In this document: positions 698-64,000 of the stretch, one piece after another
Layout: every line of letters begins with the position of its first letter
Numbering within the stretch: position 1 is the stretch's first letter
NCBI RefSeq assembly: GCF_022045235.1
Contig: NW_027266343.1
Span: 51,616,134 to 51,680,133 of the forward strand
From: Haliotis cracherodii
Lineage: Eukaryota
Length of the DNA: 64,000 nt
Direction of reading: 5' to 3'
The notes under the pieces: model-generated
Database searches by the model: none
Seen by the model: only the letters and a program-made list of their open reading frames with translations
What the model was told of the DNA's origin: nothing
Translations under genes and position numbers: made by a program

Positions 698-1837
698 CTG
701 AAACATGGAACGCCGTATGATAGGAACACCAATATATGTTTGAAGACAACAGCATGACCATCAACCTAAATCACTGTACCGATTAATATATCCCTGTTCA
801 TGGAGGGTGTCAAATGACAAAGCCAGTATTTTCATTATAAAGAATAACAAATTTGCTGCAGACAATGATATCCACGGTGGATTCTGTTACCTGCAAGTAG
901 CTTGTGAAGGGTCAGTTCCTTGTCCGCGGCTGCAACTCGCAGATAGCGGTGACGGACAGCGGTCATTATCTCCGCATGGGCCAATGACAGACAGGTGCTC
1001 CTGGAAACATCAGGTTGCCATGGATATTAGAAGACAAAAACAAAGTCAACACACAACCATGGTGACTTTGAATAAGCAGCTTGGAGTGATGTCCCCCTGA
1101 ATATGAGAAGTCAGATCGCCATTTGGCCACAATGTTTTATTTTGTGTTATTTCAGATTGTGCAGTGGTGTTAAGATTCATTCTACAAGGACTTTGAAAAA
1201 ATATCTCTTCTGACTGTCAATTAGAGGTTTTCAATTACAACTAATAACAACCTCTGATTGAAACAGTTTATTTGTTGGCTGCATAACCATAGATGATTAT
1301 TATCATAGGAAAGTGCTTCATTCCTGTCACGTTAAATGTTGTCACAGAGATGATCAACATGGATTGTAGAGCTAGAGACCTACATATTTGATTTGCATGT
1401 TGGCATCAATACAATGCTCTTATGTTTGAGTTGCACATACAACATGTGACAGTAATATTATCGCCAGATGTCACAACACATCAATATTGCCAAACTTTAG
1501 AATACAAACAGATACCCAGACCTCTTTCAACCAATAACATTCCAGGCCCACCATATTAAAGTGAGTGAGAAAGGTTTTATCTTGTTTTTTTAGCAATATT
1601 CCAGAAATACCATGGAGGGCGACACCAGAAATGGGCTTCACATATTGTACTCACAGGGGGAATTGAACCTGGGTCTTTGGTATGATGAGGGAACGCCTAA
1701 CAACTGGGCTACCCTACCACCCCTACCATACTAAGCATCATTAAAATAAACAAACTTATGTATGTATTGGGGCAAAAACAATACAAATAGCAAACACCAA
1801 GAAAACCCATAAATGAATAATGTCCGGAGTGTCTTAC

Positions 1838-2015
1838 CATGCTCCGCTTGGGTTGAGGAAAGTCTGGATCGAGCGGCAGAGGTAAGAGAAGGACGCTGGG
1901 GGCATGAGGTCCTCGAAGTCGACCTCAATGTTCATAAAGTCATTGATGTCAAACTTGCCACTTCCTAGAATGTTCCACCATGTGAGCAGTTCTCGAAGAT
2001 CCTCCGCTGGTAGCC
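1838..2015 (-). CDS. TEP1: TEP1 exon (LPAEDLRELLTWWNILGSGKFDINDFMNIEVDFEDLMPPASFSYLCRSIQTFLNPSGA)
   Basis: ORF 1834..2034; acceptor ccattttcag|GGCTAC; donor GCATG|gtaaga. Confidence 0.6.
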
Positions 2016-2254
2016 CTGAAAATGGAGGAAACACTGCACTGATTTGTCACATCCTGAAAATTTCAGCCATTAAGCCATCAGGCTGTCAATTAATATGGGA
2101 CAGCTGACGGTTGACTACAGAACAAAACATCTTTCACTTACTCACTCACTCCTGTATGGAGTGGGAATGAACAGGTGATGAAAGGACACCTCATGGCGAG
2201 TTTAAGTTCAAGATCATGTTAATTCTTAATCAAAACAAGCATGAAATTCTCATA

Positions 2255-2590
2255 TCCCCTGCCAATATGACATGTCTGGATGTGTGCAAGGCAAAAAATA
2301 TTGCACGTTTTTTTAAGATCTGCTCCAGAATGGAGCACTACTGCTATTTGTAGTCAAAATCAAACTCGTTGCCATGGAAACTCGAAAAATAAATTTTTCA
2401 ATAATCCCAAAAATATTAAAAAGCACCAGTTCACCACTAGACCTATCTATGTGCCAAGTTTGGTTAAGATTTCTCTCATGTTTTCTTAGTTTTTGCTCCA
2501 AAACAAAACGTGATTGACAGACGGACGGAAGGAAGGATGGATGGATAGCTATATCCCTTCCACTTTTGTGTGGGGGATAAATAACCAGTT
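2255..2590. mobile_element. non-autonomous MITE-like element with ATATCCCC...GGGGATA termini
   Basis: two further copies at 23700-24030 and, inverted with an internal ~150-bp tandem duplication, at 42017-42505; shared core gttgccatggaaactcga[at]aaataaatttttcaa and a gacggacgg motif. Confidence 0.6.
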
Positions 2591-2601
2591 CAAGTTCGTA
2601 C

Positions 2602-2734
2602 CATCTCTAGCGCAGACCAGCAGAGAGAGGGCTGTGGCCACTACACTCTGGCCATGGTCAGTCTCCAGTCTACCCAGCACTTCCTGCAGCAACTGGGGCG
2701 TTGTGTGGGGCAGCGACTTCAACTTGGTGGATAT
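2602..2734 (-). CDS. TEP1: TEP1 exon (ISTKLKSLPHTTPQLLQEVLGRLETDHGQSVVATALSLLVCARD)
   Basis: matches recalled human LRTLPATVPLLLQHILSTLEKEHGPDVLPQALTALEV; acceptor tttcctccag|ATATCC; donor GATG|gtacga. Confidence 0.7.
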
Positions 2735-3940
2735 CTGGAGGAAACAGCAAACTCAGTTATCTCCAAAATATACAATAAGACCAATTATTGTTATTGATAT
2801 CATTATTATTAACGTGATCATTTTGGGGTACGGAAAGAAAAAAGTGAAAGGATGCAATTTTTCTGGTGTGCCATATGTCATCTGCACATCAGTACCCTGC
2901 AGTTCTAGATCTTTGACATACTTCATATTGATCATGGTTAGACACATCCTCCCGAGGCAAGAGAGTTAACTGACTATAAAAGTCCAGTTTCCACCCTTGC
3001 CGAACTAGGCTGTTATTATGGAGTCTATGCATAGTCCAATCAAAATCATGCAATGAAATCGAAATCCGGTTCGTAAACTGTCATGCATGTGCACCGCCAA
3101 TTCGTGGTCAACAGATATTTTCCAAATTTTTTCAAGTTTTTAATCAAGGTGCTCATGTGTTCTGATGCACTTTGCGATGTCAGATCCGTTTTATCACAAT
3201 AGAGATGTTGAATATCGATCAGATCGTCTTGACTGGGCATGTGATACAAGAGGTTGAATCTGATTGGTCCATAGTCCTGAGAGACATAGAAGGGACATAA
3301 CTAGTAATAGCCTCTGGTGGCGCTACGATCAAGCCCAGGCCTTCCAGCCTAGTTTGGCAAGGGTGGAAACTTGACTTTTAAAGTCAGTTAACTCACTTGC
3401 CTCGGGAAGATGAGATAAACACTACCACTGGTCCTTAGTCTGAGACCAGTAAAAGTCTAGAGGTATTTTCTTCTAAAATTTAGTCATTTTTCATAACCAC
3501 TCGTCAGAAATGAACTTTGGCTAGTTGCCACTGCATGACCAATTGCTCATGATTGATATACATAGTTCTCAAACTTGACCAAGGGTCCATTCCACAAAGC
3601 GATGGTTGTGCTAAGGTGACCATACCTTACCATTACTTTCGACTGTAATTCATCTTACTATGAAGGCTTTGTGGAACAGACTTTTGGTCAAGTTTGAGAA
3701 CCATCTAAATCTTTAGTTTTTTAGGTGGACTTTAAAAAACACTAAGATTGGTAAAATCTGTGGAAGTTTTTGTTTTTGGAAATCAACAGATGGGGAGACT
3801 ATGCATCATTGTAGAAGCATTAAGACCAATTCAGGAAATTGGTAAACAGTGGTAAGTTCCTCTGGGAATTGGTTGGAAATGCTCCAATCAGTCAAAGATG
3901 TGTCAACTAGAGAAACTGCCCTCCATTATTTTTTTAAGTG

Positions 3941-3990
3941 AGTGAGTGAGTGAGTGAGTGAGTGAGTGAGTGAGTGAGTGAGTGAGTTGT
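3941..3990. repeat. (GAGT)n microsatellite at a SINE tail
   Basis: similar (GAGT)n or (GGGT)n tracts at 20065-20170 and 30372-30432, (GTGC)n at 29222-29290, (ACGC)n at 54296-54365. Confidence 0.9.
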
Positions 3991-4477
3991 GTTTAACGCT
4001 GCTTTTAACAGTATTCCAGTTATATCACGGTGTGTCAGCTTAATGTGGGAGGAAATCCCGAAGTTATGCAGGTCTCAGACGTTTTCCACTTCGGTGAAAC
4101 AAACCAGGTGCTGACAAACCTAGAAACATAATCGGGGTGAACTGGGATTTGAACCCACAATCATAGGTTTCTGGCGTGTCCAGGGGACGCAACTCTGCAC
4201 AGCAAATCGCGGATATAGCTGAAGACCATAAAATGTTGTACCTCATTAAGTCATACTTCCCAAATTGGTTTACTAATAAGCAACTAAAGCATGCCAGTAT
4301 ATACTGAACAAAAAGTTAGGGATCATGAATGTTTTTTGGGATATTTTTATGAAACTGTGTGCTCAGTCTTCAATACAAAAACATATCCCCAAAATATTCA
4401 CGATCACCCACCTTCTTGGTTCAGTATAAATAAATAAATCTTGGGTATCGCAATGTGTGAAATGAATCTGTGTTACC

Positions 4478-4569
4478 TTCTCGAAGACTCCAAAGACTCG
4501 GAGTTCCTCACAGGCCAGTTTGAGGTAGAGGGGACTAGTGGCCTCCTTCTTGGATGTAATGAGCTTCAG
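4478..4569 (-). CDS. TEP1: TEP1 exon (LKLITSKKEATSPLYLKLACEELRVFGVFEK)
   Basis: matches recalled human MRLLLVKRESGRPLYLRLVTDHLRLF; acceptor gttgttccag|CTGAAG; donor GAGAAG|gtaaca. Confidence 0.8.
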
Positions 4570-4726
4570 CTGGAACAACATCGCATCACATTACCACCAT
4601 CACTACCACCAGACTGACAAATAAGCATTCACTTAAATCAGTGTGCGAGTCAAAATGTTTGCCGCTAAAATGTGTTCCAAAAATCAAGGAATCATGTCAG
4701 TGTATTTTTTGTGGTACTAGTGTATT

Positions 4727-4965
4727 TTTACAAACCTGTAGAGGTTATGAATTCTCTGATGAAATCCTCCTTGGGGCACTTATTGCATTTTCCTGGCTCA
4801 AGAAAATCTACATGACATAGTTGTAACCATTTTCCTTAATAAAAATTGTTACCACACAAAAAACTTTGTTTTTGTCTGATATACGTCCACCCTTATGGTG
4901 CCTCACCCTCCACGGCGCGTCACGCCAAGGGAAGCAACTCTCACCCAAATCACTTTCCATATGTC
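4727..4965. repeat. DIRS inverted terminal repeat (element 3' terminus)
   Basis: ~200 bp near-perfect reverse complement of 10980-11180. Confidence 0.85.
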
Positions 4966-5003
4966 TAATGCTGACGGAATGTGGGGAGGCGGGTGGCCGT
5001 GCC

Positions 5004-5097
5004 CCAAGGAGGATTTCATCAGAGAATTCATAACCTCTACAGGTTTGTAAAATTCTCTTTCAGATTAAATCCTCCTTGGGGCACTTATTGCATCAAG
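5004..5097. promoter_or_regulatory. DIRS internal complementary region (ICR)
   Basis: 5004-5058 is the reverse complement of the outer ~55 nt of the left ITR (4729-4782). It is followed directly by an exact copy (5059-5097) of the reverse complement of the outer 39 nt of the right ITR (11157-11195). In element orientation the ICR is therefore complementary to the joined termini. Confidence 0.75.
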
Positions 5098-5561
5098 ATA
5101 GACTCCTAAAGATAATCTAGGAAGTGGCATCCGTCAGCAACAAGCGTGCATAAATACATCGTATTTTGATTATTTCAATGAATAAACAAGAGTTCAATAA
5201 ATGGAACCAACCTTATCGTGAGGCACCACCGTCGAAAGGCGGGGGCTGGAGACAGGGCGTTATCGACCATACACCATGAAAAGAGCCATTCTTTGTGGCT
5301 TATCATATCGAGAACTCGAGACACACACACCCCCCACCCCCCACACTTTTTTTGAACAAGTGATATTGGGGCACAGATCACGAGAGCCTATAAACCCGCA
5401 CAGAGCTAGGCCAGAGGGTCCCCGTAATCGAAGGAGTGCATGTGCAAATACGATGATTATCGAGTGGTAATGGCTGGTATTGTATCGACCGTAGAAGATA
5501 AAATCCGGACCGTTACTGAGCAGTGTTATAACCGGTCCGGGCGGTCTAAAATCTCGAAGGC

Positions 5562-6722
5562 TCAATCGGCTAGAGATGTAGAACTTTGCCCAGTTCGGAG
5601 AACTGACTGACCAAACCGAGCACGCTCGCTTGAGTGTTTGTCGAGTTGGTAATGTTTGATGAACGTGCTCGGCTGGCTCCAAATAGCCGCGGAGCAGATC
5701 TCCTCAATGGGCAGAGCCGCGGCATACGCTTGTGTCGTAGCCACTGCTCTAACCGAATGAGCCTTCAACTTGGTAGGGGGGTCCCTGCCTTGAAGTGTGT
5801 ACGCCGTACATATAGTAGAGACTATCCACCTGGAGATTGTTTGTTTGCTCGCAGGTGAGCCAGCCTTCCTACCGCCATAACAGCAAAATAGTTGATTATC
5901 CTTACGGATACCCTTAGTTCTGCTGATATAGGACTTAAGGGTCCTGCGGACATCCAAGACATGAGCATGTCTTGTAGTGGTCCCCGACGAAGAAGGCTGT
6001 GAAAGAGCAGGTAGCTCAATAGGAGCCGTCACGTGGAAGGCGTGTGCGACCTTAGGACGGTAAGAGTCCGGCAGGCGAATACTGACCCTGTCCCGGTGAA
6101 AGACAGTTAGTTCGGGATCGGCTGACATTGCGTGAATGTCGCCTACCCGTCTGCCGGACGTTACCGCCACAAGGAACGCCGTCTTCCAGCTCAACAGCTG
6201 AAGAGAGAGAGACGACAGATCCCGAAAGGAAGGACCGGACAGCCAATCAAGAACGATTGACAATTCCCAAGGGGGACTGATCCGCCGGACAGGCGGTCGG
6301 ATCCTGTCCACACCTGCTAAAAAACGCTGCACTAATGGGTGCGCACCCAAAAGTGCCCCGTCGACGGGGACGTGAAAGGCAGCGATAGCTGTAGAGTACC
6401 CCCGGACTGTCGATGCGGCCAGGCCGACATCTAGTCGCGACTGGAGGAACTCAAGTACGACTACGAGATCTGCAGAAAAGGGATCTGCAATCCCTCTATC
6501 GACACACCAGCGCGCATAGCAGGCCCATCTATCCTCGTACTGAACGTTTGTCGAATCCCTCCGCGAAGCCAGTATTGTGTCTGCAACTCGTGCAGGAATA
6601 CCGCTCTCCTGGAGGCGATTCCGGACAGTGGCCAAGCCACCCACTGAATCCTGGGATTCGGGTGGAGGGCCTCGTTCTGGGATAGGAGGTCCGGTCGTAA
6701 AGGTAATAGAACAGGAGCACAA
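5562..6722 (-). CDS. DIRS tyrosine recombinase (386 aa); overlaps the Pol 3' end in another frame
   Basis: N-terminal core-binding-like region, then catalytic HSVRAVATTQA (H-x-x-R) and the KHYQLD Tyr nucleophile; overlapping ORF arrangement typical of DIRS. Confidence 0.8.
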   Translation of the reverse strand: MCSCSITFTTGPPIPERGPPPESQDSVGGLATVRNRLQESGIPARVADTILASRRDSTNVQYEDRWACYARWCVDRGIADPFSADLVVVLEFLQSRLDVGLAASTVRGYSTAIAAFHVPVDGALLGAHPLVQRFLAGVDRIRPPVRRISPPWELSIVLDWLSGPSFRDLSSLSLQLLSWKTAFLVAVTSGRRVGDIHAMSADPELTVFHRDRVSIRLPDSYRPKVAHAFHVTAPIELPALSQPSSSGTTTRHAHVLDVRRTLKSYISRTKGIRKDNQLFCCYGGRKAGSPASKQTISRWIVSTICTAYTLQGRDPPTKLKAHSVRAVATTQAYAAALPIEEICSAAIWSQPSTFIKHYQLDKHSSERARFGQSVLRTGQSSTSLAD

Positions 6723-8337
6723 GTAGTCGCGCAGGCTGAGTGGCTAGCTGAGACAGGACCTTGGAAATCAGAGGTACTGGGGGGAATGCCCACAGAATTC
6801 TGTCCGTCCAATCTAGCTGGAAGGCGTCCGGTGCCACCGACCTCGGGTCGGGGACTCGGGAGCAGAACGTTGGTGTCTGGTGATTCACCCCAGACGCAAA
6901 CAGATCCACCTGGAACGACCCGTATAACTGGGAGATAATCCCGAATATCCCCGGGTCGAGCCTCCACTCGTGAGGAGCGAGGATCCGGCGAGACAGAGCG
7001 TCCGCACGGACGTTGTCTACCCCCGGGAGATAAACAGGTAGCACCCTGATAACGTGTGAGTCGCACCATAGGAGGAACTGCCACGTCTCTTGGAGAAGCG
7101 ACGGAGACACCGTTACCCCCTGCTTCCGGATGTAAGTCATCGCCGTTTGGTTGTCCATCTCTAGACGCACCACTTGGCCACGAAGCAGATCCAGGAAGCG
7201 TTGGAACACCAACCTGACCGCTCTCAGTTCTAGCACATTGATATGCAGTTTGATCTCCTGCTGGGACCATAGTCCCGAGGCAGTGTGATCGTTCAGAACG
7301 CCTCCCCAGCCGGAGAGTGACGCGTCTGTTTGAACTGTGAGAGACGGCACGGGAGTGTCGAGGGGGAGCCCCCGGGACAGATTCCCGACCTCGGTCCACC
7401 ACTGAAGGTGTGCATTGAGCCACTGCGGAGTCTCGAGAACAGTCTCGAGATCTTCCGAGTTCACCCAAAGTCGACGGAGCGCTTGTTGAATGGGTCTCAT
7501 TCTCAAGCGCGCCCGCCAAACCACATCCACTGTCGCCGCCATGTTGCCCAGTAACTGGAGCCATGTACGAGCAGTGTGACTGGCGGACAGAAGGAACTGG
7601 GAAGTAACACTTCTGACCTTGGTAATGCGATCTTGTGACAGAGATACAATTCCGCTCACCGTGTTGAAATTCGCCCCTAGGAAGACTAGATTCTGAGTAG
7701 GGCTCAGATCTGACTTCTTGAGATTGACTATCCACCCTAGAGTGATCAGAATATCTATCACTTGTTGTGTAGCTATCTGACTCAGGGATTGCGATAGAGC
7801 TCTTAGTAACCAGTCGTCGAGGTACGGATGGCAGAACCGACCTTTTGACCTGGCCACTTGGGCGGGAATCAACATCAGCTTGGTGAACACCCTCGGGGCC
7901 GTAGCGATCCCGAATGGTAGAACCCTGAACTGATAACACCTCCCGTCGAAAGAAAACCTGAGGTATTTCTTGAACTCGGGGTGTATGGGTACGTGGAGAT
8001 AGGCGTCTTTTAGGTCTATTGACGTTAGCCATTTTCCGGTCTCGACAGCTGAGATCACCGAGCGCAGTGTCTCCATCCTGAAGGACGGTACCTCTATAAG
8101 TTTGTTCAGCCTTCTCAGATTGAGAATAGGCCTGAACCCTCCGTCTTTTTCGGTGACTAGGAAATATGTCGAGTAGAAGCCCTCGCTTTCCTGTCCCACG
8201 GGAACCGGTTCGATCGCAGCCTTCATAAGAAGTGCGTCGACCTCGGCACGGAGGAATTCCGCCCTCTCTAGGGTAGCAGGCACCGGAGTGTGCTTTATCC
8301 CGGAGAAGGGGGGCGGATGGTGTTTCCACCGAGGCAA
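6529..8337 (-). CDS. DIRS Pol: reverse transcriptase plus RNase H (602 aa)
   Basis: RT motifs FRPILNLRRLN, SIDLKDAYLHVP, FRVLPFGIATAP and YLDD; RNase H motifs TDAS..GWGG, NVLELRAV, DNQTAMTYI and VDNVRADALSR; no methyltransferase domain evident. Confidence 0.85.
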   Translation of the reverse strand: MPRWKHHPPPFSGIKHTPVPATLERAEFLRAEVDALLMKAAIEPVPVGQESEGFYSTYFLVTEKDGGFRPILNLRRLNKLIEVPSFRMETLRSVISAVETGKWLTSIDLKDAYLHVPIHPEFKKYLRFSFDGRCYQFRVLPFGIATAPRVFTKLMLIPAQVARSKGRFCHPYLDDWLLRALSQSLSQIATQQVIDILITLGWIVNLKKSDLSPTQNLVFLGANFNTVSGIVSLSQDRITKVRSVTSQFLLSASHTARTWLQLLGNMAATVDVVWRARLRMRPIQQALRRLWVNSEDLETVLETPQWLNAHLQWWTEVGNLSRGLPLDTPVPSLTVQTDASLSGWGGVLNDHTASGLWSQQEIKLHINVLELRAVRLVFQRFLDLLRGQVVRLEMDNQTAMTYIRKQGVTVSPSLLQETWQFLLWCDSHVIRVLPVYLPGVDNVRADALSRRILAPHEWRLDPGIFGIISQLYGSFQVDLFASGVNHQTPTFCSRVPDPRSVAPDAFQLDWTDRILWAFPPVPLISKVLSQLATQPARLLVLLFYYLYDRTSYPRTRPSTRIPGFSGWLGHCPESPPGERYSCTSCRHNTGFAEGFDKRSVRG

Positions 8338-8510
8338 ATGGCCATCCCTTAGAGTGGACAGGGTCCAGGGATTGGATGTGACTGTCTCCCATTCCTGCAG
8401 GAATAGAGCCAGTCGGCCGCCTACGGGGACATCCGGCTTGAGGCAGTGGACCCCGGCTGTCGGCAGTTCGATAACATGCGACCGTGGGTCCGCCCGGGGC
8501 TCTTCGGGCG

Positions 8511-10049
8511 CTAATGGGAACCCGATGGGTTCCCGGCCCCGCGAAAAGGCTGCTGGCCTCGACCAGCTGCCCTGCCCCGGCCCCTGCCTCTCTTGCTCCT
8601 CCCGGCGCCCTTACCTGAAGGAAGCGGCTGCTTCCAAGCAGGTGCAGACTTCTGACCCGGCGCATCAGCGTAGGAGGAAGCAAGTGGAGAGGTCCGCTTA
8701 CGCGGTTTAACGCATGGTACCTCCAACAAGGCCTTAGAATCCTTGATGGAGGCATACAACTGTGCGGCCTCTCGGACCACCTGCTGAGCCCCAGGGAAGA
8801 GGGTGGCACCCATCTTATATGGCAAAGCAAGTAGATCCTGGCGTGTGGAAGCCGAGTATTTGGATACCGACATCCACAGCCTGCGCATGCCCATGACTGC
8901 GCACATCATCTGCGAGGCACAGCTACGAATAGCGTCCCTGGCAAGATGACTATGTACCTCCGTCAGTTGCGCGGCCAACTCCGAAGAGTCGGCCGGCCCC
9001 TCTCCCGCTAACTCCCTCTGTACGGCCGACAGATAAGCGGAGTGTACGGACACCCGGAGCTGCTGACATGCGTTACGATATTGCTCCTCGAAGCAAACGT
9101 AAGCAGCCTTCAGCTCCGTACCGCACGCGGGAAAGGGTGGCAACCGCCGGCCCTGCTTGACCTTAGCCAAGTTGGGGGTCGAAGACCCCCCCAGGGTAAC
9201 GGAGGTCCAGACGCATTCGTCCACCACCGGTACCTCAAAATCACCATCCTCTGCTAACGGGTACCGCTTAATAAGTTCGGGCAGGTCGAACTTCCTGCGG
9301 GCACCCGACAACAGAGGATTGATAACTTCATGCACCAATGAGGACAGAATACGGAGCCGCACCTGGGGCGCCTTGCTCGGAGCAAAAGCGTCCCCCGGAA
9401 GGCGGAACTCAGTCGGATCCGACTGGGGCATAGGCGCAGCCACCTGAGGCAGTACCTGGACAATCTTGTCCCGTACATGCCTCAACGAGGAAACGAAGGA
9501 AAATGTTCCCGAGGTCTCCGAGTCGTCTCCCCCCTCCTCCATCCACTCCTCCTCTCTCGATTCCGAGCCGAAATTAATCGACTCTTCCCCGAGAGAAGAG
9601 GCAGACGAAGTCGGAAGGGGACGCCCGAAGGCCTGGGCCTTCGCATCCCCGGGCTGCACCCGGCCCGAAGCCGAGTCCCGGTCCCGAGGTGCCGGGGGTT
9701 CAAGGGAACCCACCTGGCTCTGGGCTAGCAATCCGCTAGAGGAAGCCTCGGCCTCGGAAGAGGCGTCTGGCTCCGCTAGGGAGAACTGTGCGTCGGTAGT
9801 GAACGGGCCAGTGCCCGCCACCCCTCCGCTGGGGAGCGACCTCGAGCCGGCGCCGAAGCCCGGTCTGAGATCGTCCCCGAGACCAAGTGGCCTGCCTCGG
9901 CCGACGCCGGGCATATCACAAGGTCTCGAAGCCGCGTCCGGCGCCGACAACGGGGAAGGCTCGGTCCGCATCTCCTCTCGGAGCTGAGACTTTACCTCCT
10001 CCATCATCGACGCCATCTGCGACCTCAACAAGGCAGAGATGTCTGCCAA
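8511..10049 (-). CDS. DIRS Gag-like ORF (512 aa; the track 'M' is a TTG, and the first in-frame ATG is codon 12)
   Basis: position upstream of the RT; coiled-coil-like N-terminus, Ser/Pro-rich middle, basic C-terminus. Confidence 0.6.
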   Translation of the reverse strand: MADISALLRSQMASMMEEVKSQLREEMRTEPSPLSAPDAASRPCDMPGVGRGRPLGLGDDLRPGFGAGSRSLPSGGVAGTGPFTTDAQFSLAEPDASSEAEASSSGLLAQSQVGSLEPPAPRDRDSASGRVQPGDAKAQAFGRPLPTSSASSLGEESINFGSESREEEWMEEGGDDSETSGTFSFVSSLRHVRDKIVQVLPQVAAPMPQSDPTEFRLPGDAFAPSKAPQVRLRILSSLVHEVINPLLSGARRKFDLPELIKRYPLAEDGDFEVPVVDECVWTSVTLGGSSTPNLAKVKQGRRLPPFPACGTELKAAYVCFEEQYRNACQQLRVSVHSAYLSAVQRELAGEGPADSSELAAQLTEVHSHLARDAIRSCASQMMCAVMGMRRLWMSVSKYSASTRQDLLALPYKMGATLFPGAQQVVREAAQLYASIKDSKALLEVPCVKPRKRTSPLASSYADAPGQKSAPAWKQPLPSGKGAGRSKRGRGRGRAAGRGQQPFRGAGNPSGSH

Positions 10050-10159
10050 AGACGGTGCAGGAGAGGGTGCAGTGATTGCGACGGGGACCCTAGAGCCTTC
10101 TCCCCCGGCCCCCGGGGAGGGAGCGGAGGAGACAGTCTCAGCTGCTTTTTTTCCCCTTC

Positions 10160-10507
10160 TTACTTTTTTAGATGGGGGGGGGGGGCGGTCTTTGCCGATC
10201 TAATGTCCACCCCCGCCTTCAATAGACCCTTAAAGTGTAAGAGGTCCACCTTCCTCTTTTTTTGCGCCCGTGGTGTAAATGCAACACAGATCGGGCATGA
10301 CCCATCGTCATGCCCGTCTTCGGCCAAACACTTTATGCAAGTATCATGCCTGTCTTGGGGGGGAATCGAGGCCGAGCACCCCGTACACAGTTTGAAGGTC
10401 TGTAAAAAAGACCGTAATTTTTGAGTTTGGCGGGAAGGGTAATAAAGTGTATCAGTGCGATTGAAAGATCGGAAAGATACGTGCATAAATTGTGCAACTA
10501 GAAGCAA
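10160..10507 (-). CDS. DIRS upstream ORF (115 aa) with a Cys/His motif and basic KKRKV; probably the N-terminal part of Gag, separated by a frameshift at the G12 tract
   Basis: CTGCSASIPPQDRHDTCIKCLAEDGHDDGSCPIC; ends at the G12 homopolymer (10174-10185). The gag frame is open upstream to ~10203 and has no ATG before the TTG at 10049. Confidence 0.5.
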   Translation of the reverse strand: MLLVAQFMHVSFRSFNRTDTLYYPSRQTQKLRSFLQTFKLCTGCSASIPPQDRHDTCIKCLAEDGHDDGSCPICVAFTPRAQKKRKVDLLHFKGLLKAGVDIRSAKTAPPPHLKK

Positions 10508-10979
10508 AGGCGTAATTTAGAATGCGATTGGTAACGCGATACTAACAGCCAATGTCGTAGTATAATTATAACACCAAAGTGGGCGTGTTACGCGCGAAGG
10601 TGTAAAAAACCCGTAAAAAAGGTAAGTGTAATTTAAAAATAAATAACACACCACCTTGGGTTTATTAAAGGAAAAGATTGTAGGCTAAAGCCCGATGATA
10701 TAACATTAAAAAACCCAAGCCGTTTTTGATGGCCCTGGTGTTACATGTATCATACGTGGCACTACAAAATGGACGCTACTACGGCCTTTGTTTTCAAAGG
10801 TATCGTACACGTGTCACATAATTACAACTTTATAACTTCACAATGCGATGTATTACGCCTTTGCATGAAAGAAATGTACCATACATACAGTTTGGTCTGC
10901 CATGGTTCTTGTACGAACGATTATCTTGTACTTTGTTTTGTCTTGAAAAAAACAGCACGTCTGTCTTAGTCAGATGACA

Positions 10980-36100: not shown

Positions 36101-39011
36101 ATTGTATAGTTTGGGAAAACTTTCATTTTAGGGTGGATTTTCTACGATTATACATTGTTACACAGAAATATTTAGATATATTTAGTATCATAAATGAGTT
36201 CCAATATATCTAAGGGTCACTGACCTTCGCCGATTGTTGTTTACCTGTTTATTTACATTCCGAGCTGACTCCACTCATCCGTACCATAGCCAGTGTATTA
36301 GCAATGAATCCTTAACTAATTACACAGGCACTGATGTAATCTGAGCCAACTCACCATTTCGCCCGGTACCACCTCACATGGCCACTTGTTGATTCCAGCA
36401 GGCACCGCGGGAGGGGGGACAGGGAGGAGTGTTTGCGGTGTGAGGTGACATGAATCAACAAATAGCTAATGAGATACAGAGACTGAATGACAATAAACGA
36501 CGAGTATCTTTCATCTCCAATTACCCTGGAAGAGGCGATCCTGCTATTTAACACCTCCTCCCTATTCCCAGCCCCCCCCCCTTTTTCTGTCTCTCTAGCA
36601 GCCCCTTTCACGGTAACCAAAGACTGACGCTAAGGCTCTGAAGATATATAATTTTGATAGAAACAAGCATGAATTTGAAAAGAATCGCCAGTCAGATTGA
36701 AGTTTCAAATCTGAACCTCTGTACAATCTTTTATAAGTCAGGGTTGGCCAGAAGTTTGAATAGTAATACTGACGTTATTATTTTCTTTGTGATGATAGGT
36801 CGGCTCGCGTTAAAATATGAAAAAATAAATAAAACTATCACAAAGTACGAATGAACATGTAAAAATACATAAAAGTAATATTATCGATTCGTTTTAATGT
36901 TCAAATTTCACTTGTCATAGATGTTTCTTGAATGAAAGTCGCAAAAGTGTTGGTAAAACACGTATATGTCTTACAAATTTATAATTAAAAAAATACGAAT
37001 TATTTGTCGCAAATAAAATCTAACATAAACGGTCTTAAAACGCTGGACGTAGCGTCCAAGAGCTTCTACTTTCTAAAAAGTTCTTGTGTGTGGGGTGGGG
37101 GGGTGGGGGGGGGGCTCGTACAATTAGATTTGCTACCACTTAGAATTACCCTAGTTGCGCCCATGGTGCATAAAACTAAAATATATATATTTTGGGTCGG
37201 TGGGGAAGAGAAAACAAAAGAATCATTCGGCAAGACTTTCACATGTGTTCTAACCTTCATCAAACGTCAATAATGGCATTATGTTGAACAATGTAACCAG
37301 AATCAAAAAGATCAAAGAAAAGCGCCGCGCATGCACAGGTGTGCGTATATTGTAACTGAGGAGGTTATAAAACCTTGACTCATCATATTTACTGAATTGG
37401 AACTCTGGTACAGATCCATTACTATGCTCTGGAATAAAACTTTTCACTCATATACGCGGATATAGAGTAGGTGGTTGGGGTATTATCTCCCATGCAGTGT
37501 ACTAAGTACACCCACCCAACGCCACCCATACACTGGTTTGCCTGGTCCAGACTCGATTGTTTGTTTGTTTGTTTGTTGTTCTAACGCCTCACTCAGCAAT
37601 ATTCCAGCTACATGACGGCGGTCTGAAAATAATCGAGTCTGGATTAGACAATCCGGTGATTGACATCATGAGCATCGATCCACGCAATTTGGATACGATG
37701 GCATGAATCAATCAAGTTAGCACTTACATTCCTGCATGGGCTGTAGAAATCGAGGGCAGAAATGTCAAGCATGATAGCTGGGAAATTAAATTTAAATTAT
37801 TTTTCCAACTATATTGCAGTTTTGTAAAGGTCTCATAAGTGCATTTGTTCAGGAATACGTGAAATGCTTTGATCCAATGTTTAATTATATCATATTTCTA
37901 TTTTCAACCCGCATCCCTATATTTGTCTGTTCATACAAGGCCAGATTTGAAAAAAATGAAAAGCAGTGATTTTGTGTTAATATACTCTTATAAAAAATTT
38001 ATTAAAATACCATGATTAATATCTGTTGAAAACTCATCTTAAACATACCCTCTCACAATTGATGTTTCCCCTACTCAGCATTTTCATGAAATCAAAACAA
38101 ATATTTGACTTTTTCAAAATTCGCCCTACTGATCTGAATCCACGCAATACAATGTAAATTGCATCTTCACAGCTTCGTGGAGTTTTCGATAAGACCCATA
38201 TTAGTATTTCTATTGGCTGAGGTGTATTAAGATTATGGACATGGCTTCGTCGCTCATATTTTGTACATCATGGCAATGCATTAGATATTGGTTTACAGTC
38301 ATTGTGGCTCATTGTGGTACTCTTCAAATATATTGCGCCGTGTGTTTGATAAGGCCGTTTCATTACGACGTGGCAATACTGTAGCTATATTGCAAATTCA
38401 TGTAGTGTTACATTGTGTCACTGTCAGTCCATTCAGGTCCCACATTCTTCGCGTGTAAGGTCAAGTTGATGCTACTTAGTATTTACCATAATTATTAGCT
38501 GTATATGCATCTAAACGGGTTACATCATTCCTATATATATTGGAAACAATATTGTCAATGGCGCTGTTACATTTTTATATTACTACATGATTTCCGCTGG
38601 CATGCTGAAAATATATTATATTGCTACTTCACGTACTTAAATTATCATCATTGTATTTTGCGTGCTTCATCAAAAATAACTTTAATGGCTGAGATACAAA
38701 ATATCAAACTGATCGACATTTCTGATAAAAAAGTTACTTCGTTACCCCAACGACTTTGGTGTCACGTGATTTATGTTTACAAATAATGTAAGCTCCGCCC
38801 AATTGTTAATTGACGGGAAAACCCAAGCCAATGAAAAGCGTTGGCGGCCTGGACGTATGGCGAGTTATAAAATGCACGTGGAATCCGTGCGCTGTCACAC
38901 GTGCCAGGTGCAAGAGTCGTCAGTGCTGCCCAAATTCTATCACCCAAGGCGGCGCACCATTGACCGAGGCTACCATCTTTAACTCGGAGGCGACCTGTGG
39001 CTGATTCAACA

Positions 39012-39899
39012 ATGCTACTACACCCTGTGCTGGAACCTGACTCCGGGGACTGTCGTACGACTGACGACTTTGAACTACTCGCTGGGGATGGTGTTCCAAA
39101 CCACCAAAGCCTACTACTCCCTCAGATCCCCAAATTCACGCCACAGCTCGCCAAGAAGAAAATCTTGTCCGCCAAAGAAGACTTCATAGGTAGGAATGAC
39201 TCCGCGTTTAGCGACGTGTTATGTCTGGGGAACGACCACATCTACGACCCCTACCAGGACTACTTTGGGTTGTGTCAGGAGTTCGCCGGGGGCCGGGGCG
39301 AGCTGAGCCCTAGTTCCGATATTTCCCTGTCATCGGACGAGAGTAGCGACAGCTTCAAATATGCAAGTTTCCAAGCTTCAAATCCATCGCTTGTGAATTC
39401 GAATTTCAGCAAGTTAGACCAGGAAAGACTTTGTGCTTTGACGACGGCGGAATTCGAAAGAAACGGAACTACTTACGAACTGGACGAGTATGACATCATA
39501 CAACAAAAGGTGCGTGGGCACGAACCCCCCACCCGCGAGATCCCGGTTGTTCCAAATGATCGGATCAAGGAATACCTGTGGCTCAAACAGTGCAAGACAG
39601 CCCGTGGCGATGCCACACAACTACAGGTGCAGGGGAAGAAAAAATCGAAGTTGATCTGTGTATTCTGCAAGAACAACAAAGAACCTCCACACGTGTACAC
39701 AGGACATGTTTTGAAGGATTCCCGTGGGTATACGGCGTGCCCAGTGTTGAGGAAGTACCCGTGTCCAATCTGCCAAGCCATCGGGGACCACGCCCACACC
39801 ATCAAATACTGTCCCTTCAACAACGACTCAGAGTTTCGAACCAGCCCCTCTCCTCTCCGTACGACGCGCATGGCCACAGGTAAAAAGCGTCGAACATGA
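39012..39899 (+). CDS. nanos: Nanos-family RNA-binding protein, single exon; 295 aa from the ATG at 39012 (ORF track starts at GTG 38997)
   Basis: C-terminal tandem CCHC Nanos zinc fingers [56 protein letters not shown]1-interacting-like motif [12 protein letters not shown]; stop TGA at 39897-39899. Confidence 0.9.
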
Positions 39900-46717: not shown

Positions 46718-48157
46718 TCACGCTGTCTGGGTGAAGTTAAAGGCGAAGGCTATCTGGCTGACAGGACCCTGGGCTGTTGCGACTAAAAGCGGCGAAGAGC
46801 TATTAACCCACGGAACTTCCAACACGGCAATCTGACCTTGAACTTCATAATCATAGGGAACCGGAAGTGTCCACATTATGTTTTGCTGACCGTCCCCAAA
46901 GGATGTATCCAAGGCAACCAAGTAATTCGTCGCATTATAGGAAGAGTGGGGCTGAGTTTTATTAACCCGTCTTACGGCGAAAAGAAGGAGGTCAGCATGC
47001 GTTTTGGGATCTATGGCTACCATTACCCTTGACGTCACTTGTACGCTGGTGTTTAGCATGTGGGAGACGTTAGCGATTTGTTGGACCTGGCTGGAGATTT
47101 GATCGAATCCGTTAATGGTGTCGCCAAACTGCGTGACAGCCCACACCAGGCTTCCCTCGCCAAGCCCGGCCCGTTGCTTTGTGTGAGTGACTGGTGTTTT
47201 TATGTCCTTAGGATCTGTGTCCCGGAGTTCTTGTTTCACACCAGTGTCCCATGACGAGTCCAGACCCGGCCTGCCATAGGAATCGTCATAGACCGACATA
47301 TGAGAGAGGGAGAAGTTGTTGCTGTACGACAAGCTCATGTTTGTACCTAGATCTTGAATACCCACCAGTTTGGAAAATGAGCTTTCAAGGCAGCACTGAC
47401 GATTTTCTTCCAATGTCAGCATATCACAGATCCCTGTAGGGGGCGCCACACTTGCCATCACTGTTCCAAAGAAGTATATCAAACTGGACTGTTCACTTGC
47501 CTGCTGTGACCATTGGGGACGAATCTTGTCGCTGGGATGGCGGCCCTTGTGTGAACCGCCCGTACCGGAAGTACCAGGGTTTTGATGCTTGTTTGTGTTT
47601 CCTGTACCGGTAGAAAGAATGAAATCGTCCTGAACCATTCCCACAACATCCATAGATTCGCCATGTCGAAGTACTGGATTCCGCAAACTGTTGGTTGTTT
47701 CCCAAATATTTGTTCCACCCTTTGCTTCAGATCGTGTGAGCATGTCTAGGAGGCCGGAGTTACCAGCCACCTGATTAGCCGTCATATACTTCAGTCTCGT
47801 GTCGTGCTCGAGTGTGTCACGTTTGTTCCTGGAGAGACGAGACCGTTTCATTGCATCAGGGTTCCCAAGTCTTATTGTCTTCTTATCACGTGAGATCTCG
47901 GACGCGGGTTTATGTTTACTACCTGCTACGTTCCCAGCGTTTTGTTTCCCTTCATCTTGGGACGATTCCGTGGATTTCTCTGGTCGCCGACAGTTGACCT
48001 TGACCTCTAGTTCCAGGTTGAAGTACCAGACGATATCGATAGGCTGCAACAAGCGGTCCAAGAGGTCTATGGCGTACAGACGCTGCATACCGAGAGTACC
48101 AAGCTGTGGAAAATGTGGAAGAACCTGGTTTAATCTGCGACACAATATGATATCCAT
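46718..48157 (-). CDS. unknown protein A (479 aa); intronless ORF, paralog of the adjacent ORF B
   Basis: long ORF, improbable by chance; N-terminal QRLYAIDLL, a long S/T/G/N/K-rich disordered stretch, and a C-terminal ~150-aa domain shared with ORF B (VWAV..., LLFA, MWTLPVPYDYEVQGQIAVLEV); many NxS/T sequons. Confidence 0.55.
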   Translation of the reverse strand: MDIILCRRLNQVLPHFPQLGTLGMQRLYAIDLLDRLLQPIDIVWYFNLELEVKVNCRRPEKSTESSQDEGKQNAGNVAGSKHKPASEISRDKKTIRLGNPDAMKRSRLSRNKRDTLEHDTRLKYMTANQVAGNSGLLDMLTRSEAKGGTNIWETTNSLRNPVLRHGESMDVVGMVQDDFILSTGTGNTNKHQNPGTSGTGGSHKGRHPSDKIRPQWSQQASEQSSLIYFFGTVMASVAPPTGICDMLTLEENRQCCLESSFSKLVGIQDLGTNMSLSYSNNFSLSHMSVYDDSYGRPGLDSSWDTGVKQELRDTDPKDIKTPVTHTKQRAGLGEGSLVWAVTQFGDTINGFDQISSQVQQIANVSHMLNTSVQVTSRVMVAIDPKTHADLLLFAVRRVNKTQPHSSYNATNYLVALDTSFGDGQQNIMWTLPVPYDYEVQGQIAVLEVPWVNSSSPLLVATAQGPVSQIAFAFNFTQTA

Positions 48158-48790: not shown

Positions 48791-49657
48791 TTAGCGGAGG
48801 CCAAAAGCATACACACCGGTCATATTTCTACCAGTTCCGACAAACGTCTCATAGGATGCGCTCACAAAACTGATTTGGCCTTCAACCTGGAAGGAATCAG
48901 GTAACGCAATATTCCACATCACCGTTGGTGCTTTCTGAGAAGACAGAATTCCTTGCAGCGTTACGAGGTGTTGGGAGTACCTCAGGGCGGTGGTGTTTGC
49001 AATGCTCAATGCGAACATGAGAACATAGCTGTCGGCAGTGTCGATATGTACCATCAGACTTGAGGATAGCCTGACGTGTTTTACATTCAGTAAGGCATTT
49101 AAGGTAATATTCATGAACATGCTTTTAGTTTTTGGGTTAAGTGCTGAAATAACAGAACCCCGTTGCTGGGCAACCCAGACGACTGGCATCTGAACGCTGT
49201 CGTCATGACAAAATGTGACGTCATCATAAACAGCAAAATTTGATGGTGGATAACTGGATGTATGCACTATGGTTCCTTTGGAACCGTCTTCTCTAACGGC
49301 CAGCAACGTCGAAACGGCGTCACAATCACCACCCCGCCCATCAACCCCCGACAGGCTGATGTAGATGGTGCTGTGATAATACAACAGCACATTTTCAGAA
49401 CCACCATCTGTGTCATCAGAGTCGGCATCAGATGCGAATGTGGCCCTTCCTGTTCCAACGTTCACGCTCCATACCACGCGCATGCGCTCTAATTCACTGA
49501 CCCGGATGTCGACAGAATATAAGCGCTGCATTCTCACGATCTGAAAACGGACATAGGAAGTGGTTGAAGCCAAGCATTGTGAGATACACTGGTGCAGGAC
49601 ACGGCGGGTGAAGGAGGGATACCATATAACCCCAGAAATAAAGTTACATGTATGCAT
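48791..49657 (-). CDS. unknown protein B (288 aa); paralog of ORF A
   Basis: N-terminal QRLYSVDIR and C-terminal domain (VVWVAQQ..., LMFA, MWNIALPDSFQVEGQISFV) alignable to ORF A; NxS/T sequons. Confidence 0.55.
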   Translation of the reverse strand: MHTCNFISGVIWYPSFTRRVLHQCISQCLASTTSYVRFQIVRMQRLYSVDIRVSELERMRVVWSVNVGTGRATFASDADSDDTDGGSENVLLYYHSTIYISLSGVDGRGGDCDAVSTLLAVREDGSKGTIVHTSSYPPSNFAVYDDVTFCHDDSVQMPVVWVAQQRGSVISALNPKTKSMFMNITLNALLNVKHVRLSSSLMVHIDTADSYVLMFALSIANTTALRYSQHLVTLQGILSSQKAPTVMWNIALPDSFQVEGQISFVSASYETFVGTGRNMTGVYAFGLR

Positions 49658-49789
49658 GAGGTTAAATAAATATAACTTTATTAAAGAATCCCCGAGTATT
49701 AAGGAATTCTCAAGACCTTTAATTGAACTGGTTATGAGTATATGTGGAGAAGGGATGAGTATAGGTTGCTGGAGCTGAGAAGGGGATGA

Positions 49790-50990
49790 GTGCAGGATGT
49801 TGGAGCTGAGGCGGTGGGTATAGGATGCTAGAACTGAGAAAGGGATGAGTAAATGTTGTTTGACTTGAGAATCGAATCCGGGTCTTCAGCGTGACTTGGC
49901 CACCCGACCGCCCATAGGCTGCTAGAGCTGAGAAGGGGATGGGTATGAATTCCATAGCTGAGAAGGGGATAGGTTTAGGCTGCTGGAGCTGAGAAGGGGA
50001 TGGGTATGAATTCCATAGCTGAGAAGGGGATAGGTTTAGGCTGCTAGAGCTGGGAAGGGGACGAGTATAGGCTGCTGGAGCTGACGGGGTGGGTGTAGGT
50101 TGCTAGTGCTGAGAAGGGGACAAGTTTAAGCTGCTGGAGCTGAGGGGATGAGTATAGGTTGCTGGAGGTGAGGGGGGTGGGTATAGGCTGCTAGAGCTGG
50201 GAAGGGGATATGTTTAGGCTGCTGGAGCTGACGGGGTGGGTGTAGGTTGCTAGTGCTGAGAAGGGGACAAGTTTAAGCTGCTGGAGCTGAGGGGATGAGT
50301 ATAGGTTGCTGGGGGTGGGTATAGGCTGCTAGAGCTGGGAAGGGGACGAGTATAGGCTGCTGGAGCTGACGGGGTGGGTGTAGGTTGCTAGTGCTGGGAA
50401 GGGGACAAGTTTAAGCTGGCTGGAGCTGAGGGGATGAGTATAGGTTGCTGGAGGTGAGGGGGTGGGTATACGCTGCTAGAGCTGGGAAGGGGATATGTTT
50501 AGGCTGCTGGAGCTGAGGGGATGAGTATAGGTTGCTGGAGGTGAGGGGTGGGTATACGCTGCTAGAGCTGGGAAGGGGATATGTGTAGGCTGCTGGAGCT
50601 GACGGGGTGGGTGTAGGCTGCTAGAGCTGGGAAGGGAATAAGTATAGGCTGCTAGAGCTGAGAAGGAGATGTGTATATGCTGCTAGAGCTGGGAAGGGGA
50701 TGAGTATAGGCTGCTGGAACTGAGAATGGTATGTGTATAGGCTCCTGGAACTGAGAAGGGGATGTGTATAGGTTGCTGGAACTGAGAATGGGATGTGTAT
50801 AGGCTTCTGGAGCTGGGAAGGGGATGAGTATAGGCTGCTGGAACTCAGAAGGGGATGTGTATAGGCTGCTGGAACTCAGAAGGGGATGTGTATAGGCAGC
50901 TGGAACCGAGAATGGTATGTGTATAGGCTGCTGGAGCTGAGAAGGGGGTGAGTATAGGCTGCTGGAACTGTGAAGGGGCGTTTAACAACA
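49790..50990. repeat. 31-bp minisatellite, ~38 copies (gctggagctgagaaggggatgagtataggct), ~1.2 kb
   Basis: tandem units; period not a multiple of 3; embeds a SINE fragment at ~49855-49915. Confidence 0.95.
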
Positions 50991-54295: not shown

Positions 54296-55189
54296 TACAA
54301 GCAGCCACCCAACACACACACGCACGCACGCACGCCACGCACGCACGGACCGCACGCACGCACGCACACACACACACGTCGCTGTATAAGTGCAATAATC
54401 GTGGACGCGACGTTAAACCCCATTTCACCTCACCTCACCTCACCTCACCTCACCTCACCTTAGAGACAGAATATTGACTCACTTGCGAGATAGGCGACGA
54501 CCTCCCCCCGTCTGAGACACGATCAAAAAGATGTTCCCATCTCCGAATTCCAGACTGAAACAGAACAATGGTGGTGAGTGGATTGGGTTCTGCGCCGCTT
54601 TGAATGTACAGTATTTCAGTTGTATCCCAGTTGAATATGAGTGGCAGCCTATTGGAAGCCGGTCCACTTTGGTGAAACCCTAGTCTGTCTCACAGTCCCA
54701 GACTAACATCTAGTCTTTGATGTGATCATATTTTACGATACAAACAGTTGTTAAATTATAGTTATGAAATATAATAATAAGAAGCCCATTCTCTACTGAT
54801 ACTGCAGTAATCTAGACTTGCTATTTTATTCATTTATATTTGTTGCAGGGTCTCAGTACCTGAACCATATTATATTCCCTTCCGCCCAACCCTTACTATA
54901 GTTGTATGACTCTAAACGAAGCAAGTCTAGATTTTCCACAGTCTTTGTATCTCCCATCTCCCTTTTCAATTTAAATGGAGTTGTTGTTTTTTATCAGAAT
55001 ATATATTTTCAGAGACTAAGCGTTAGACTAGTGAAATCCACGATCACGGATATGATTCCGACTGAACTGGATCAGGAACCAGGAACAGGAATCATTGGAT
55101 TCTGGCAGGTCTAAGGGACGCAAACCATGCACAGCAAATTAGACGACTGGGCCACTCGCGTGCCCCACGGACAATCGTAGTTGTAAGTC

Positions 55190-55930
55190 ACTGAGCGACT
55201 GGTGGGTCTGTATTCCAGGGGATGTGACCCCGAGTTCTGTAAGTCTCTGAGCGACTGGTGGTCTGTTTGATAGAGGTATGTGACCCCTGAGTTGTGTAAG
55301 TCACAGAGCGACTGGTGGTCTGTTTGATAGAAGTATGTGACCCTGAGTTACGCAAGTCACTAAGCGACTAGTGGTCTGTTTGATAGAGGTATGTGACCCT
55401 GAGTTGTATAAGTTACAGAGCGACTGGTTAAATGTTTGATAGAGGAATGTGACCCTGAGTTGTGTAAGTCTCTGAGCGACTGGTGGTCTGTTTGATAGAG
55501 GTATGTGACCCTGAGTTGTGTAAGTCACAGAGCGACTGGTGGTCTGTTTGGTAGCGGTATGAGACCCTGAGTTGTGTAAGTCACAGAGCGACTGGTGGTC
55601 TGTTTGTTAGAAGTATGTGACTCTGAGTTCTGTTAGTCACAGAGCGACTGGTGGTCTGTTTGATAGAGGTATGTGATCCTGAGTTACACAAGTCACTGAG
55701 CGACTAGTGGTCTGTTTGATAGAGGTATGTGACCCTGAGTTGTGTAAGTTACAGAGCGACTGGTTAAATGTTTGATAGAGGAATGTGACCCTGAGTTTGT
55801 GTAAGTCTCTGAGCGACTAGTGGTCTGTCCTCTAGGAGATGTGACCCTGAGTTGTGTAAGTCACAGAGCGACTGGTTGTCTGTTTGATAAAGGTATGTGA
55901 CCCTGAGTTCTGTAATTCTCTGATCGACCT
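55190..55930. repeat. ~60-bp minisatellite, ~12 copies (gtaagtcacagagcgactggtggtctgtttgatagaggtatgtgaccctgagttgt)
   Basis: tandem units with point variants. Confidence 0.9.
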
Positions 55931-60229: not shown

Positions 60230-60620
60230 TGAATTGTCCACTGATCAGCCTACTGTTGGATGGGTCAATTTGTACACCAGCCACTGTTGGGAGGGTCTGA
60301 CTGTACACAGCTACTGTTGAATGGGTCAGATTGTACAGCAGCCACTGTTGGGAGGGTCTGACTGTACACAGCTACTGTTGAATGGGTCAGATTGTACAGC
60401 AGCCACTGTTTGGAGGGTTTGACTGTACACAGCTACTGTTGGATGGGTCAGATTGTACAGCAGCCACTGTTCGGAGGTTTTGACTGTACACAGATACTGT
60501 TGGATGGGTCAGATTGTACAGCAGCCACTGTTTGGAGGGTTTGACTGTACAAAGCCACTGTTCGGAATGTTTGACTGTACACAGATACAGTTGAGGGGGT
60601 CGGACAGTACACCAGCTACA
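60230..60620. repeat. ~60-bp tandem repeat, ~6 copies (ctgactgtacacagctactgttg[ag]atgggtcagattgtacagcagccactgtt)
   Basis: visible direct repeats. Confidence 0.85.
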
Positions 60621-63744: not shown

Positions 63745-64000
63745 ATTATTTCACAGTTACATTATTACACTTTTACAGGTACATTATTACACTATTACAG
63801 GTACATTATTACACTATTACAGGTGCAATATTACACTATTACAGGTACATTATTACACTATTACAGGTGCATTATTACACTATTACAGGTCCAATATTAC
63901 ACTATTACAGGTGCATTATTACACTATTACAGTTACATTGTAACATTATTACACTTACATTGTTACACTATTACAGGTGCATTATTACACTATTACAGGT
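63745..64000. repeat. 22-bp tandem repeat (acactattacaggtacattatt), ~11 copies, running off the window end
   Basis: visible direct repeats. Confidence 0.9.

Follow-up and report, generated by a model that had tools for sequence, protein, structure and literature searches.

Among the closest described systems is DIRS-1 of Dictyostelium discoideum (Cappello, Handelsman & Lodish 1985, via PMC7192593). This 4.8-kb element is bounded by non-identical inverted terminal repeats (ITRs) and carries an internal complementary region (ICR) just upstream of the right repeat, with adjacent parts exactly complementary to the first 33 and the last 55 nt of the element. It possesses a right extension (rE), gag, reverse transcriptase, RNase H and methyltransferase domains (RT/RNase H/MT) and a tyrosine recombinase (YR), and its YR ORF overlaps that of pol over a long distance. 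Experiments in Dictyostelium showed that retrotransposition requires the ICR, at a step after first-strand synthesis (PMC7192593).

The architecture of two ICR halves (lICR and rICR) and rE is general among DIRS1-like elements (Piednoel et al. 2011, PMC3266345). Identical trinucleotides at both ends, i.e., a 3-bp circular junction, were found in 23 of 28 published elements and are usual, not defining; a short four-fold conserved block at the boundary between the divergent and the conserved part of the ITRs was described in the same study. The vertebrate elements AcDIRS1, AcDIRS2, TnDIRS1a and XtDIRS2 have ICR halves of 36-43 and 57-61 nt (Table 3 of PMC3266345), an rE of 26-30 nt, a long conserved ITR and a long ORF overlap. 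They start with NTT and end with N(A/G)T, with a mismatch of the central base (CTT/CAT in AcDIRS1). In molluscs, LgDIRS1-3 from Lottia gigantea and AcaDIRS1-2 from Aplysia californica also carry ITRs, an ICR and an rE (PMC3266345). They are 4.7-5.8 kb long, with an rE of 46-49 nt, right ICR halves of 67-88 nt and conserved ITRs of mostly 31-36 nt (141 nt in LgDIRS2). They start with ATT, or with AAT in the case of LgDIRS2, identical trinucleotides were reported at both ends, and no long ORF overlap was reported in molluscs. PAT-like elements and Ngaro likewise combine a tyrosine recombinase with RT/RNase H (PAT-like elements also with MT) and repeat terminal sequence internally for circle formation, but their termini are split direct repeats. 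The methyltransferase-like domain is absent in Ngaro and VIPER. LTR retrotransposons such as Ty3/Gypsy possess direct LTRs and a DDE integrase and generate target-site duplications (TSDs) of 4-6 bp, while Cryptons encode a YR without reverse transcriptase.

The window analyzed here, a stretch of 64,000 nt (64 kb) from the genome of the abalone Haliotis cracherodii, contains a DIRS1-like element of 6469 nt (6.47 kb) on the minus strand at 4726-11194. A repeat finder was run on 4400-11500, and the element was searched by blastn against the whole window. The segment at 4999-5093 (95 nt) is very probably the ICR of this element, i.e., an antisense, joined second copy of its outermost 42 nt (5') and 54 nt (3'). 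The last 54 nt of the element, 4726-4779, recur as a perfect reverse complement at 4999-5052 (54/54; blastn E 8e-22), and its first 42 nt, 11153-11194, do so at 5052-5093 (42/42; E 3e-15). The two halves abut without a spacer and have one base in common, A5052; upon base-by-base extension, both matches stopped abruptly. When the 64-kb window was shuffled 30 times, exact inverted matches of the 95-nt ICR never exceeded 14 nt. No second copy of the element was found in the window by blastn, and the ICR-junction pattern gave 0 matches against JGI metagenome contigs.

The sequence-only reading had proposed that this region equals the joined element termini in the configuration of a circle junction, with the element 3' end followed by the 5' end on the window plus strand, and had placed the element on the minus strand with the window-left ITR as its 3' ITR. 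These proposals were borne out, and the predicted element ends (~4727 and ~11194) were correct to within 1 nt. Its positions of the halves (5004-5058 and 5059-5097) were off by about 5 nt, the exact match to the right end covers 42 nt instead of 39 nt with the 54-nt half being exact as well, and the ambiguity of the ends amounts to one A/T base instead of a 'ca' dinucleotide. Counting the 3' trinucleotide in the manner of Piednoel et al. 2011 would place the element 3' end at 4724. The features of the element are compiled in Table 1.

Table 1. Positions of the features of the abalone DIRS1-like element in the window, listed from its 5' to its 3' end.
Feature	Position	Strand	Remarks
lTer, first 42 nt, begins ATTCTCTTTCAG...	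11153-11194	minus	42/42 complementary to 5052-5093; homologous position is the 5' homology boundary in three H. asinina copies
Left (5') ITR	10976-11186	minus	211-nt inverted repeat with 4755-4965, 99%
Zinc-finger (CxxC...HxxCxxC...CxxC) N-terminal part of gag ORF	10163-10516	minus	Split from gag body here; one ORF with gag in L001 and L002
C12 homopolymer, 1-nt frame error	10176-10187	minus	C12 to C13 restores a 668-codon zinc-finger-gag ORF
gag-like ORF body	8514-10199	minus	Weak Pfam LAP2alpha match (E 5e-4); same family precomputed for gag of L002 and L005
814-codon frame overlapping pol, upstream part of long YR ORF	6464-8905	minus	Runs into YR domain in L002 and L005
pol open frame (RT, RNase H, methyltransferase-like)	6532-8610	minus	True frame only down to 6713
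64-nt deletion site	6712-6713	minus	Alignment with six relatives, four families
Terminal part of the 814-codon frame	6464-6712	minus	Carries true pol C-terminus, downstream of deletion
Tyrosine recombinase catalytic region	5565-6743	minus	Weak Pfam Phage_integrase match; homologues PF00589/PF02899; Cre/Tre profile match
lICR, complementary to first 42 nt of element	5052-5093	minus	Exact match
rICR, complementary to last 54 nt of element	4999-5052	minus	Exact match; base 5052 common with lICR
Motif GGCCACCCGCCTCCCC, directly 3' of ICR	4983-4998	minus	14/16 positions invariant in alignment of four families
Right (3') ITR	4755-4965	minus	Pairs with 10976-11186
Right extension (rE), 29 nt, 3' end	4726-4754	minus	Other copy only in rICR
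Two flanking bases (sense 'AT') after terminal A	4724-4725	minus	Probably target-derived

The ITRs are inverted and non-identical. They agree at 208 of 211 positions, with a perfect core at 4763-4958 (196/196), and diverge in their outer parts. Each ICR half was 100% identical to its own terminus and 92-94% identical to the other ITR in direct orientation, the latter because bases 4757 and 4761 differ between the outer ITRs and are mirrored half by half. The rE matched only 5024-5052 within rICR and had no ungapped counterpart in the left ITR. A 17-nt motif, AATCCTCCTTGGGGCAC, is present four times (4763-4779, 4999-5015, 5068-5084 and 11162-11178), i.e., once in each ITR and once in each ICR half. 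The TTGGGG core does not vary between families, and the motif corresponds to the four-fold conserved block of Piednoel et al. 2011 (PMC3266345). The sense-strand motif GGCCACCCGCCTCCCC showed its high degree of invariance although the four families diverge by about 40% in non-coding DNA. Its interpretation as a tRNA primer-binding site or polypurine tract was rejected, with the sense strand being pyrimidine-rich and having no tRNA-like complement.

Only one copy of the window family was available, and family-level tests made use of relatives that are 70-75% identical. The DNA around six relatives was retrieved. The ICR was tested in four insertions of Haliotis asinina belonging to two families, namely L001, L003 and L004 (one family, about 70% identical to the window element) and L006 (a second family); L005 and L007 lack termini and were therefore left out of this test. 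All four insertions carry ITRs and an ICR at the same position as the window element. The ICR halves comprise 42 and 54 nt in L001, L003 and L004, and 44 and 55 nt in L006, always with exactly one common base. Comparison of each ICR with the reverse-complemented joined termini revealed 0, 0, 0 and 1 mismatches (0 in the window copy). The termini of different families differ from one another at 16-22 positions, each of which shows the matching change in the ICR. For termini and ICR, the divergence between families is 13-25% as compared to about 40% in neighboring non-coding DNA, and when the 3' non-coding regions of four families were aligned, the best-conserved non-coding blocks were the ICR and the sequence directly adjoining it. 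In the three copies of the same family, homology ends exactly at the first and last bases predicted by the ICR.

A related element on a metagenome scaffold (L002) showed a different right end, which lacks 25 nt predicted by its own rICR. Right after ...GGTTTGTATAAAT, a 96% direct repeat of the internal region 387-504 of the element follows (5789-6255), and no left ITR is present on the contig. This right end could be due either to a nested insertion into another copy at AAT or to mis-assembly.

With regard to coding content, the RT was recognized by Pfam (RVT_1, E 6.6e-21, 75 bits at a cut-off of 29.6) and contains a YLDD motif in ORF2. The RNase H downstream of the RT scored below the cut-off (RT_RNaseH, E 1.5e-3); its motifs TDAS, LELRAV and DNQT are present and nearly invariant in an alignment of 40 sequences, and PF17917 is precomputed for many homologues. 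Pfam returned no match for the MT region, and a methyltransferase-like fold of the pol C-terminus was obtained with a structure model. For the YR, the Pfam match was weak (Phage_integrase, E 6e-3). A profile of eight YR homologues matched Cre/Tre recombinase in the PDB with E 1e-5 across HxxR...W...Y, and residues R199, H329, R332, W355 and Y365 are invariant. Among named sequences, a snake, a fish and frogs provide the best YR homologues (35-43% identity). The best relatives of the RT come from H. asinina and H. cracherodii, the closest being P0006 from H. cracherodii with 86% identity. The G+C content of the coding part (window 6001-10000) is 56-61% as compared to about 40% in the genome region.

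The frame map of the element revealed the co-oriented order gag, RT-RNase H-MT, YR catalytic domain. In kind, no coding domain of such an element is missing. No integrase (rve) match was obtained with Pfam in any ORF of the element, and neither direct LTRs nor long direct terminal repeats were detected by the repeat finder and blastn. The flanks of five insertions contained no direct repeat beyond a single A, i.e., no target-site duplication. The element is a DIRS1-like element of the order DIRS according to its RT, RNase H, MT, YR, domain order, ITRs, ICR and rE and the lack of a TSD. Three other identities were considered and rejected. A PAT-like or Ngaro element would have split direct instead of inverted terminal repeats, an LTR retrotransposon (Ty3/Gypsy) is incompatible with the lack of direct LTRs, integrase domain and TSD, and a Crypton is incompatible with the RT encoded on the same strand between the same termini.

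Compared to DIRS-1 (PMC7192593), the abalone element shares the non-identical ITRs, the position of the ICR, the rE, the set of coding regions and the long YR/pol overlap. Its ICR halves of 42 and 54 nt compare with 33 and 55 nt in DIRS-1; it differs in its ITR of about 211 nt, its size (6.47 kb vs 4.8 kb), its mollusc host and its ORF order gag-pol-YR with the catalytic part of the YR last. Moreover, the abalone element is known from its sequence, whereas the essential role of the ICR in DIRS-1 was established by experiment. The ICR halves and the rE of 29 nt resemble those of the four vertebrate elements, as do the extent of the conserved ITR and that of the ORF overlap. The host phylum is another one and protein identity is only 35-45%; the resemblance is one of structure only. 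LgDIRS and AcaDIRS belong to the same phylum and superfamily and mostly share the ATT start, but differ from the abalone element in length, rE, right ICR half, conserved ITR, ORF overlap and terminal trinucleotides. By these numbers (ICR, rE, ITR, overlap and NTT/NRT ends), the abalone element appears to be nearer to the vertebrate than to the described mollusc elements. From PAT-like elements and Ngaro it is distinguished by having inverted repeats and an ICR.

In L002, an intact relative, a 1086-codon ORF (2101-5358) in the -1 frame overlaps the whole of pol and has the YR catalytic domain at its end, and L005, likewise intact, carries a long pol-overlapping ORF of 967+ codons into the YR domain (931-3831). 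The long YR ORF of L002 contains 0 stops as compared to 22.4 ± 3.8 in synonymous-codon shuffles (0/2000). Between families, its amino-acid identity is about 37%, vs 66% for pol.

The condition of the window copy was assessed next to that of its relatives. The ICR showed 0 mismatches to the termini in 96 pairs, which corresponds to a 95% upper bound of about 3% on pairwise divergence. Should each transposition also renew the ITR core, in line with the model, the count would become 0/292 and the bound, as we infer, about 1%. A stretch of 64 nt that is present in six relatives of four families is missing between 6713 and 6712, and the relatives show CTCCTG microhomology at both edges. This deletion is private to the window copy or its family. 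As a consequence, pol is frameshifted with its true C-terminus in another frame, and the YR catalytic domain is separated from the long upstream ORF. The interpretation that the window copy has three intact ORFs was wrong. The ORFs seemed intact because all three frames remain open across the deletion, and the lesion was revealed by comparison with the relatives. In addition, the C12 run separates the zinc finger from gag, which could be either a real mutation or a homopolymer assembly error. The cis elements are flawless (96/96 ICR-terminus positions, 196/196 in the ITR core) and are accompanied by these two frame-breaking lesions. The designation 'young copy' of the sequence-only reading is therefore right with respect to low decay, with no mismatch between ICR and termini and all frames open, and misleading if it is taken to mean intact. 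The window copy is little decayed, yet not intact.

Provided that the RNA template already carried the 64-nt deletion, the window copy might represent a naturally trans-mobilised non-autonomous animal DIRS element. Together with its relatives, it might further stand for an abalone lineage that recombines at a single shared A in a target A-R-T (vs the identical 3-bp junction), and for the presence in Mollusca of a DIRS1-like architecture of 'vertebrate type', with a YR ORF of 1000 codons over the whole of pol. Taken as a whole, this scenario is rather doubtful.

The bases at the insertion junctions were compared in five genomic copies. All have an A at both ends, starting with ATTCT..., and the ICR junction has a single A. 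Thus, one of the two terminal As is supplied by the target, which is what conservative recombination at a shared base would yield. The 3' A is followed by AT, AT, GT, AT and GT in the five insertions, where the circle junction has TT. T at +2 was observed in 5/5 insertions (chance ~0.002) and a purine at +1 in 5/5 (~0.03). The start reads ATT, and the 3' end together with its flank reads AAT or AGT; the first and third positions agree in 5/5 insertions and the centre in 0/5, and a single base is unambiguously shared. Since the central base varies (A, G, A) within one family, the two bases that follow the 3' A probably stem from the target; with only five insertions, this counts as a lead and not as a result. 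Written in the notation that Piednoel et al. 2011 used, the abalone element has the start ATT, the end A(A/G)T and the junction AAT, and AcDIRS1, AcDIRS2, TnDIRS1a and XtDIRS2 have centre-mismatched trinucleotides as well (PMC3266345). A perfect 3-bp overlap (AAT) at the junction of the window copy was rejected, as the left junction predicted in this case is GCACAATTCTC and the genome reads GCACATTCTC. The empty target site would read ...GCAACAAGCAC-A-ATACACTAGT... without interruption.

The geometry fits the Cappello model as summarised by Malicki et al. 2020 (PMC7192593); the Cappello/Goodwin-Poulter model is also presented in PMC3266345. By analogy with DIRS-1 of Dictyostelium, the transcript and the single-stranded cDNA would lack the outermost terminal sequences. 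Within the long identical ITR core, one ITR could be restored from the other; the divergent outer ITR bases and the 29-nt rE have their only other copy in the ICR, and because of this the ICR would have to track the outer bases. On the cDNA strand, i.e., the window plus strand, 11153-11194 would pair with 5052-5093 and 4726-4779 with 4999-5052. Both cDNA ends would thereby anneal side by side on the ICR, with the 3'-OH at 11194 abutting the 5' end at 4726. Fill-in and ligation would yield a circle with a junction that is the complement of the ICR and reads ...ACAGGTTTGTAAAATTCTCTTTCAG... in sense orientation, with the right ITR on one side, then the left ITR. The Cre-like recombinase would then cross this junction with the target at the single shared A, leaving an A at both ends and no TSD. 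DIRS-1 cDNA is single-stranded. Since it is mostly linear, and since the circle junction was not amplified or recovered in Dictyostelium (PMC7192593), ligation and circle formation remain model steps. Likewise, templating of the junction by the ICR, as proposed in the sequence-only reading, remains a model, taken over from Dictyostelium. The 1-nt overlap in the abalone element, as compared to the usual 3-bp circular junction, would count against the reading of the segment as an ICR that templates a circle.

The ICR might alternatively have a mainly non-template role, either as a recognition site of the recombinase, being a palindrome with two inverted CCTCCTTGGGGCAC motifs, or as a self-priming 3' hairpin together with the right terminus, and its identity with the termini would then be a by-product. 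The ICR indeed forms an imperfect palindrome with arms (4999-5023 and 5060-5084) that are 92% complementary, and the CCTCCTTGGGGCAC motif occurs 4x per element and is conserved across families. In a single-stranded DNA fold of 4726-5100, rTer and rICR formed a very stable stem of 54 bp with lICR unpaired (z = -13), and the primer of DIRS reverse transcription is not known (PMC7192593). Such a role would leave unexplained why the left half mirrors each of the unique outer 5' bases in every family and why the halves abut without a spacer. Moreover, deletion of the ICR in DIRS-1 allowed cDNA synthesis and blocked a later step (PMC7192593). As a replacement for the templating role this explanation is improbable, but roles in recognition or priming are compatible with templating and do not exclude it.

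Two further explanations deny that the segment has any part in replication or that it is real, and both are extremely improbable. A nested duplication that arose by chance or secondarily beside the right ITR, e.g., a fragment of a second copy or the junction of a tandem dimer, would be unrelated to replication. The junction of tandem copies would likewise read 3' end then 5' end, but it would be in sense orientation and the ICR is antisense. The segment is found at the same place and with the same half lengths in five insertions of three families, with all changes compensated, and the E values of 8e-22 and 3e-15 add to this, so that a nested duplication is effectively refuted; the comparison with other copies, which the sequence-only reading had named as a check, gave covariation of ICR and termini in three families. 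The exact matches might also have arisen as an assembly artefact by repeat collapse or mis-joining, and the C12 frame error does hint at small assembly errors. However, the same architecture is present at four loci in an independent chromosome-level assembly of another species, and the ICR halves hold terminus-specific bases instead of a collapsed consensus. The reading of 4999-5093 as the ICR of a DIRS1-like element is thus retained.

Several other features were noted in the window around the element. Minisatellite arrays are located at 11570-12288, 14366-14741, 25482-26145, 49914-50978, 55182-55915, 60250-60619 and 63749-64000. The first of these consists of 35 copies of a 20-nt unit about 375 nt from the 5' end of the element and gives rise to a spurious ORF of 242 aa. 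An intronless ORF at 38997-39899 on the plus strand encodes a Nanos-type zinc finger (zf-nanos, E 1e-22) and is 96% identical to a Nanos-like protein of H. asinina. This points to a Haliotis host that is not H. asinina, or else to a divergent allele of H. asinina. Two ATG-initiated ORFs on the minus strand (46718-48157, 479 aa; 48791-49657, 288 aa) had no Pfam match, and the nearest minisatellite array (49747-50978) starts about 90 nt past the 288-aa ORF.

An antisense ICR of joined ends is an already known defining feature of DIRS1-like elements (PMC7192593, PMC3266345). Since its principle has been known since 1985 and its essential role was shown in Dictyostelium (PMC7192593), the abalone element does not answer an open question. 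A text search of the literature found no individually described abalone DIRS element. With the present analysis, a DIRS1-like family can be annotated in abalone genomes with boundaries precise to the base, and the comparison of families shows cleanly that the ICR halves change together with the termini. Mismatches between ICR and termini can be used to date individual insertions. To our knowledge, the circular intermediate has never been observed so far, and the ICR junction sequence constitutes an exact probe for it in abalone DNA.
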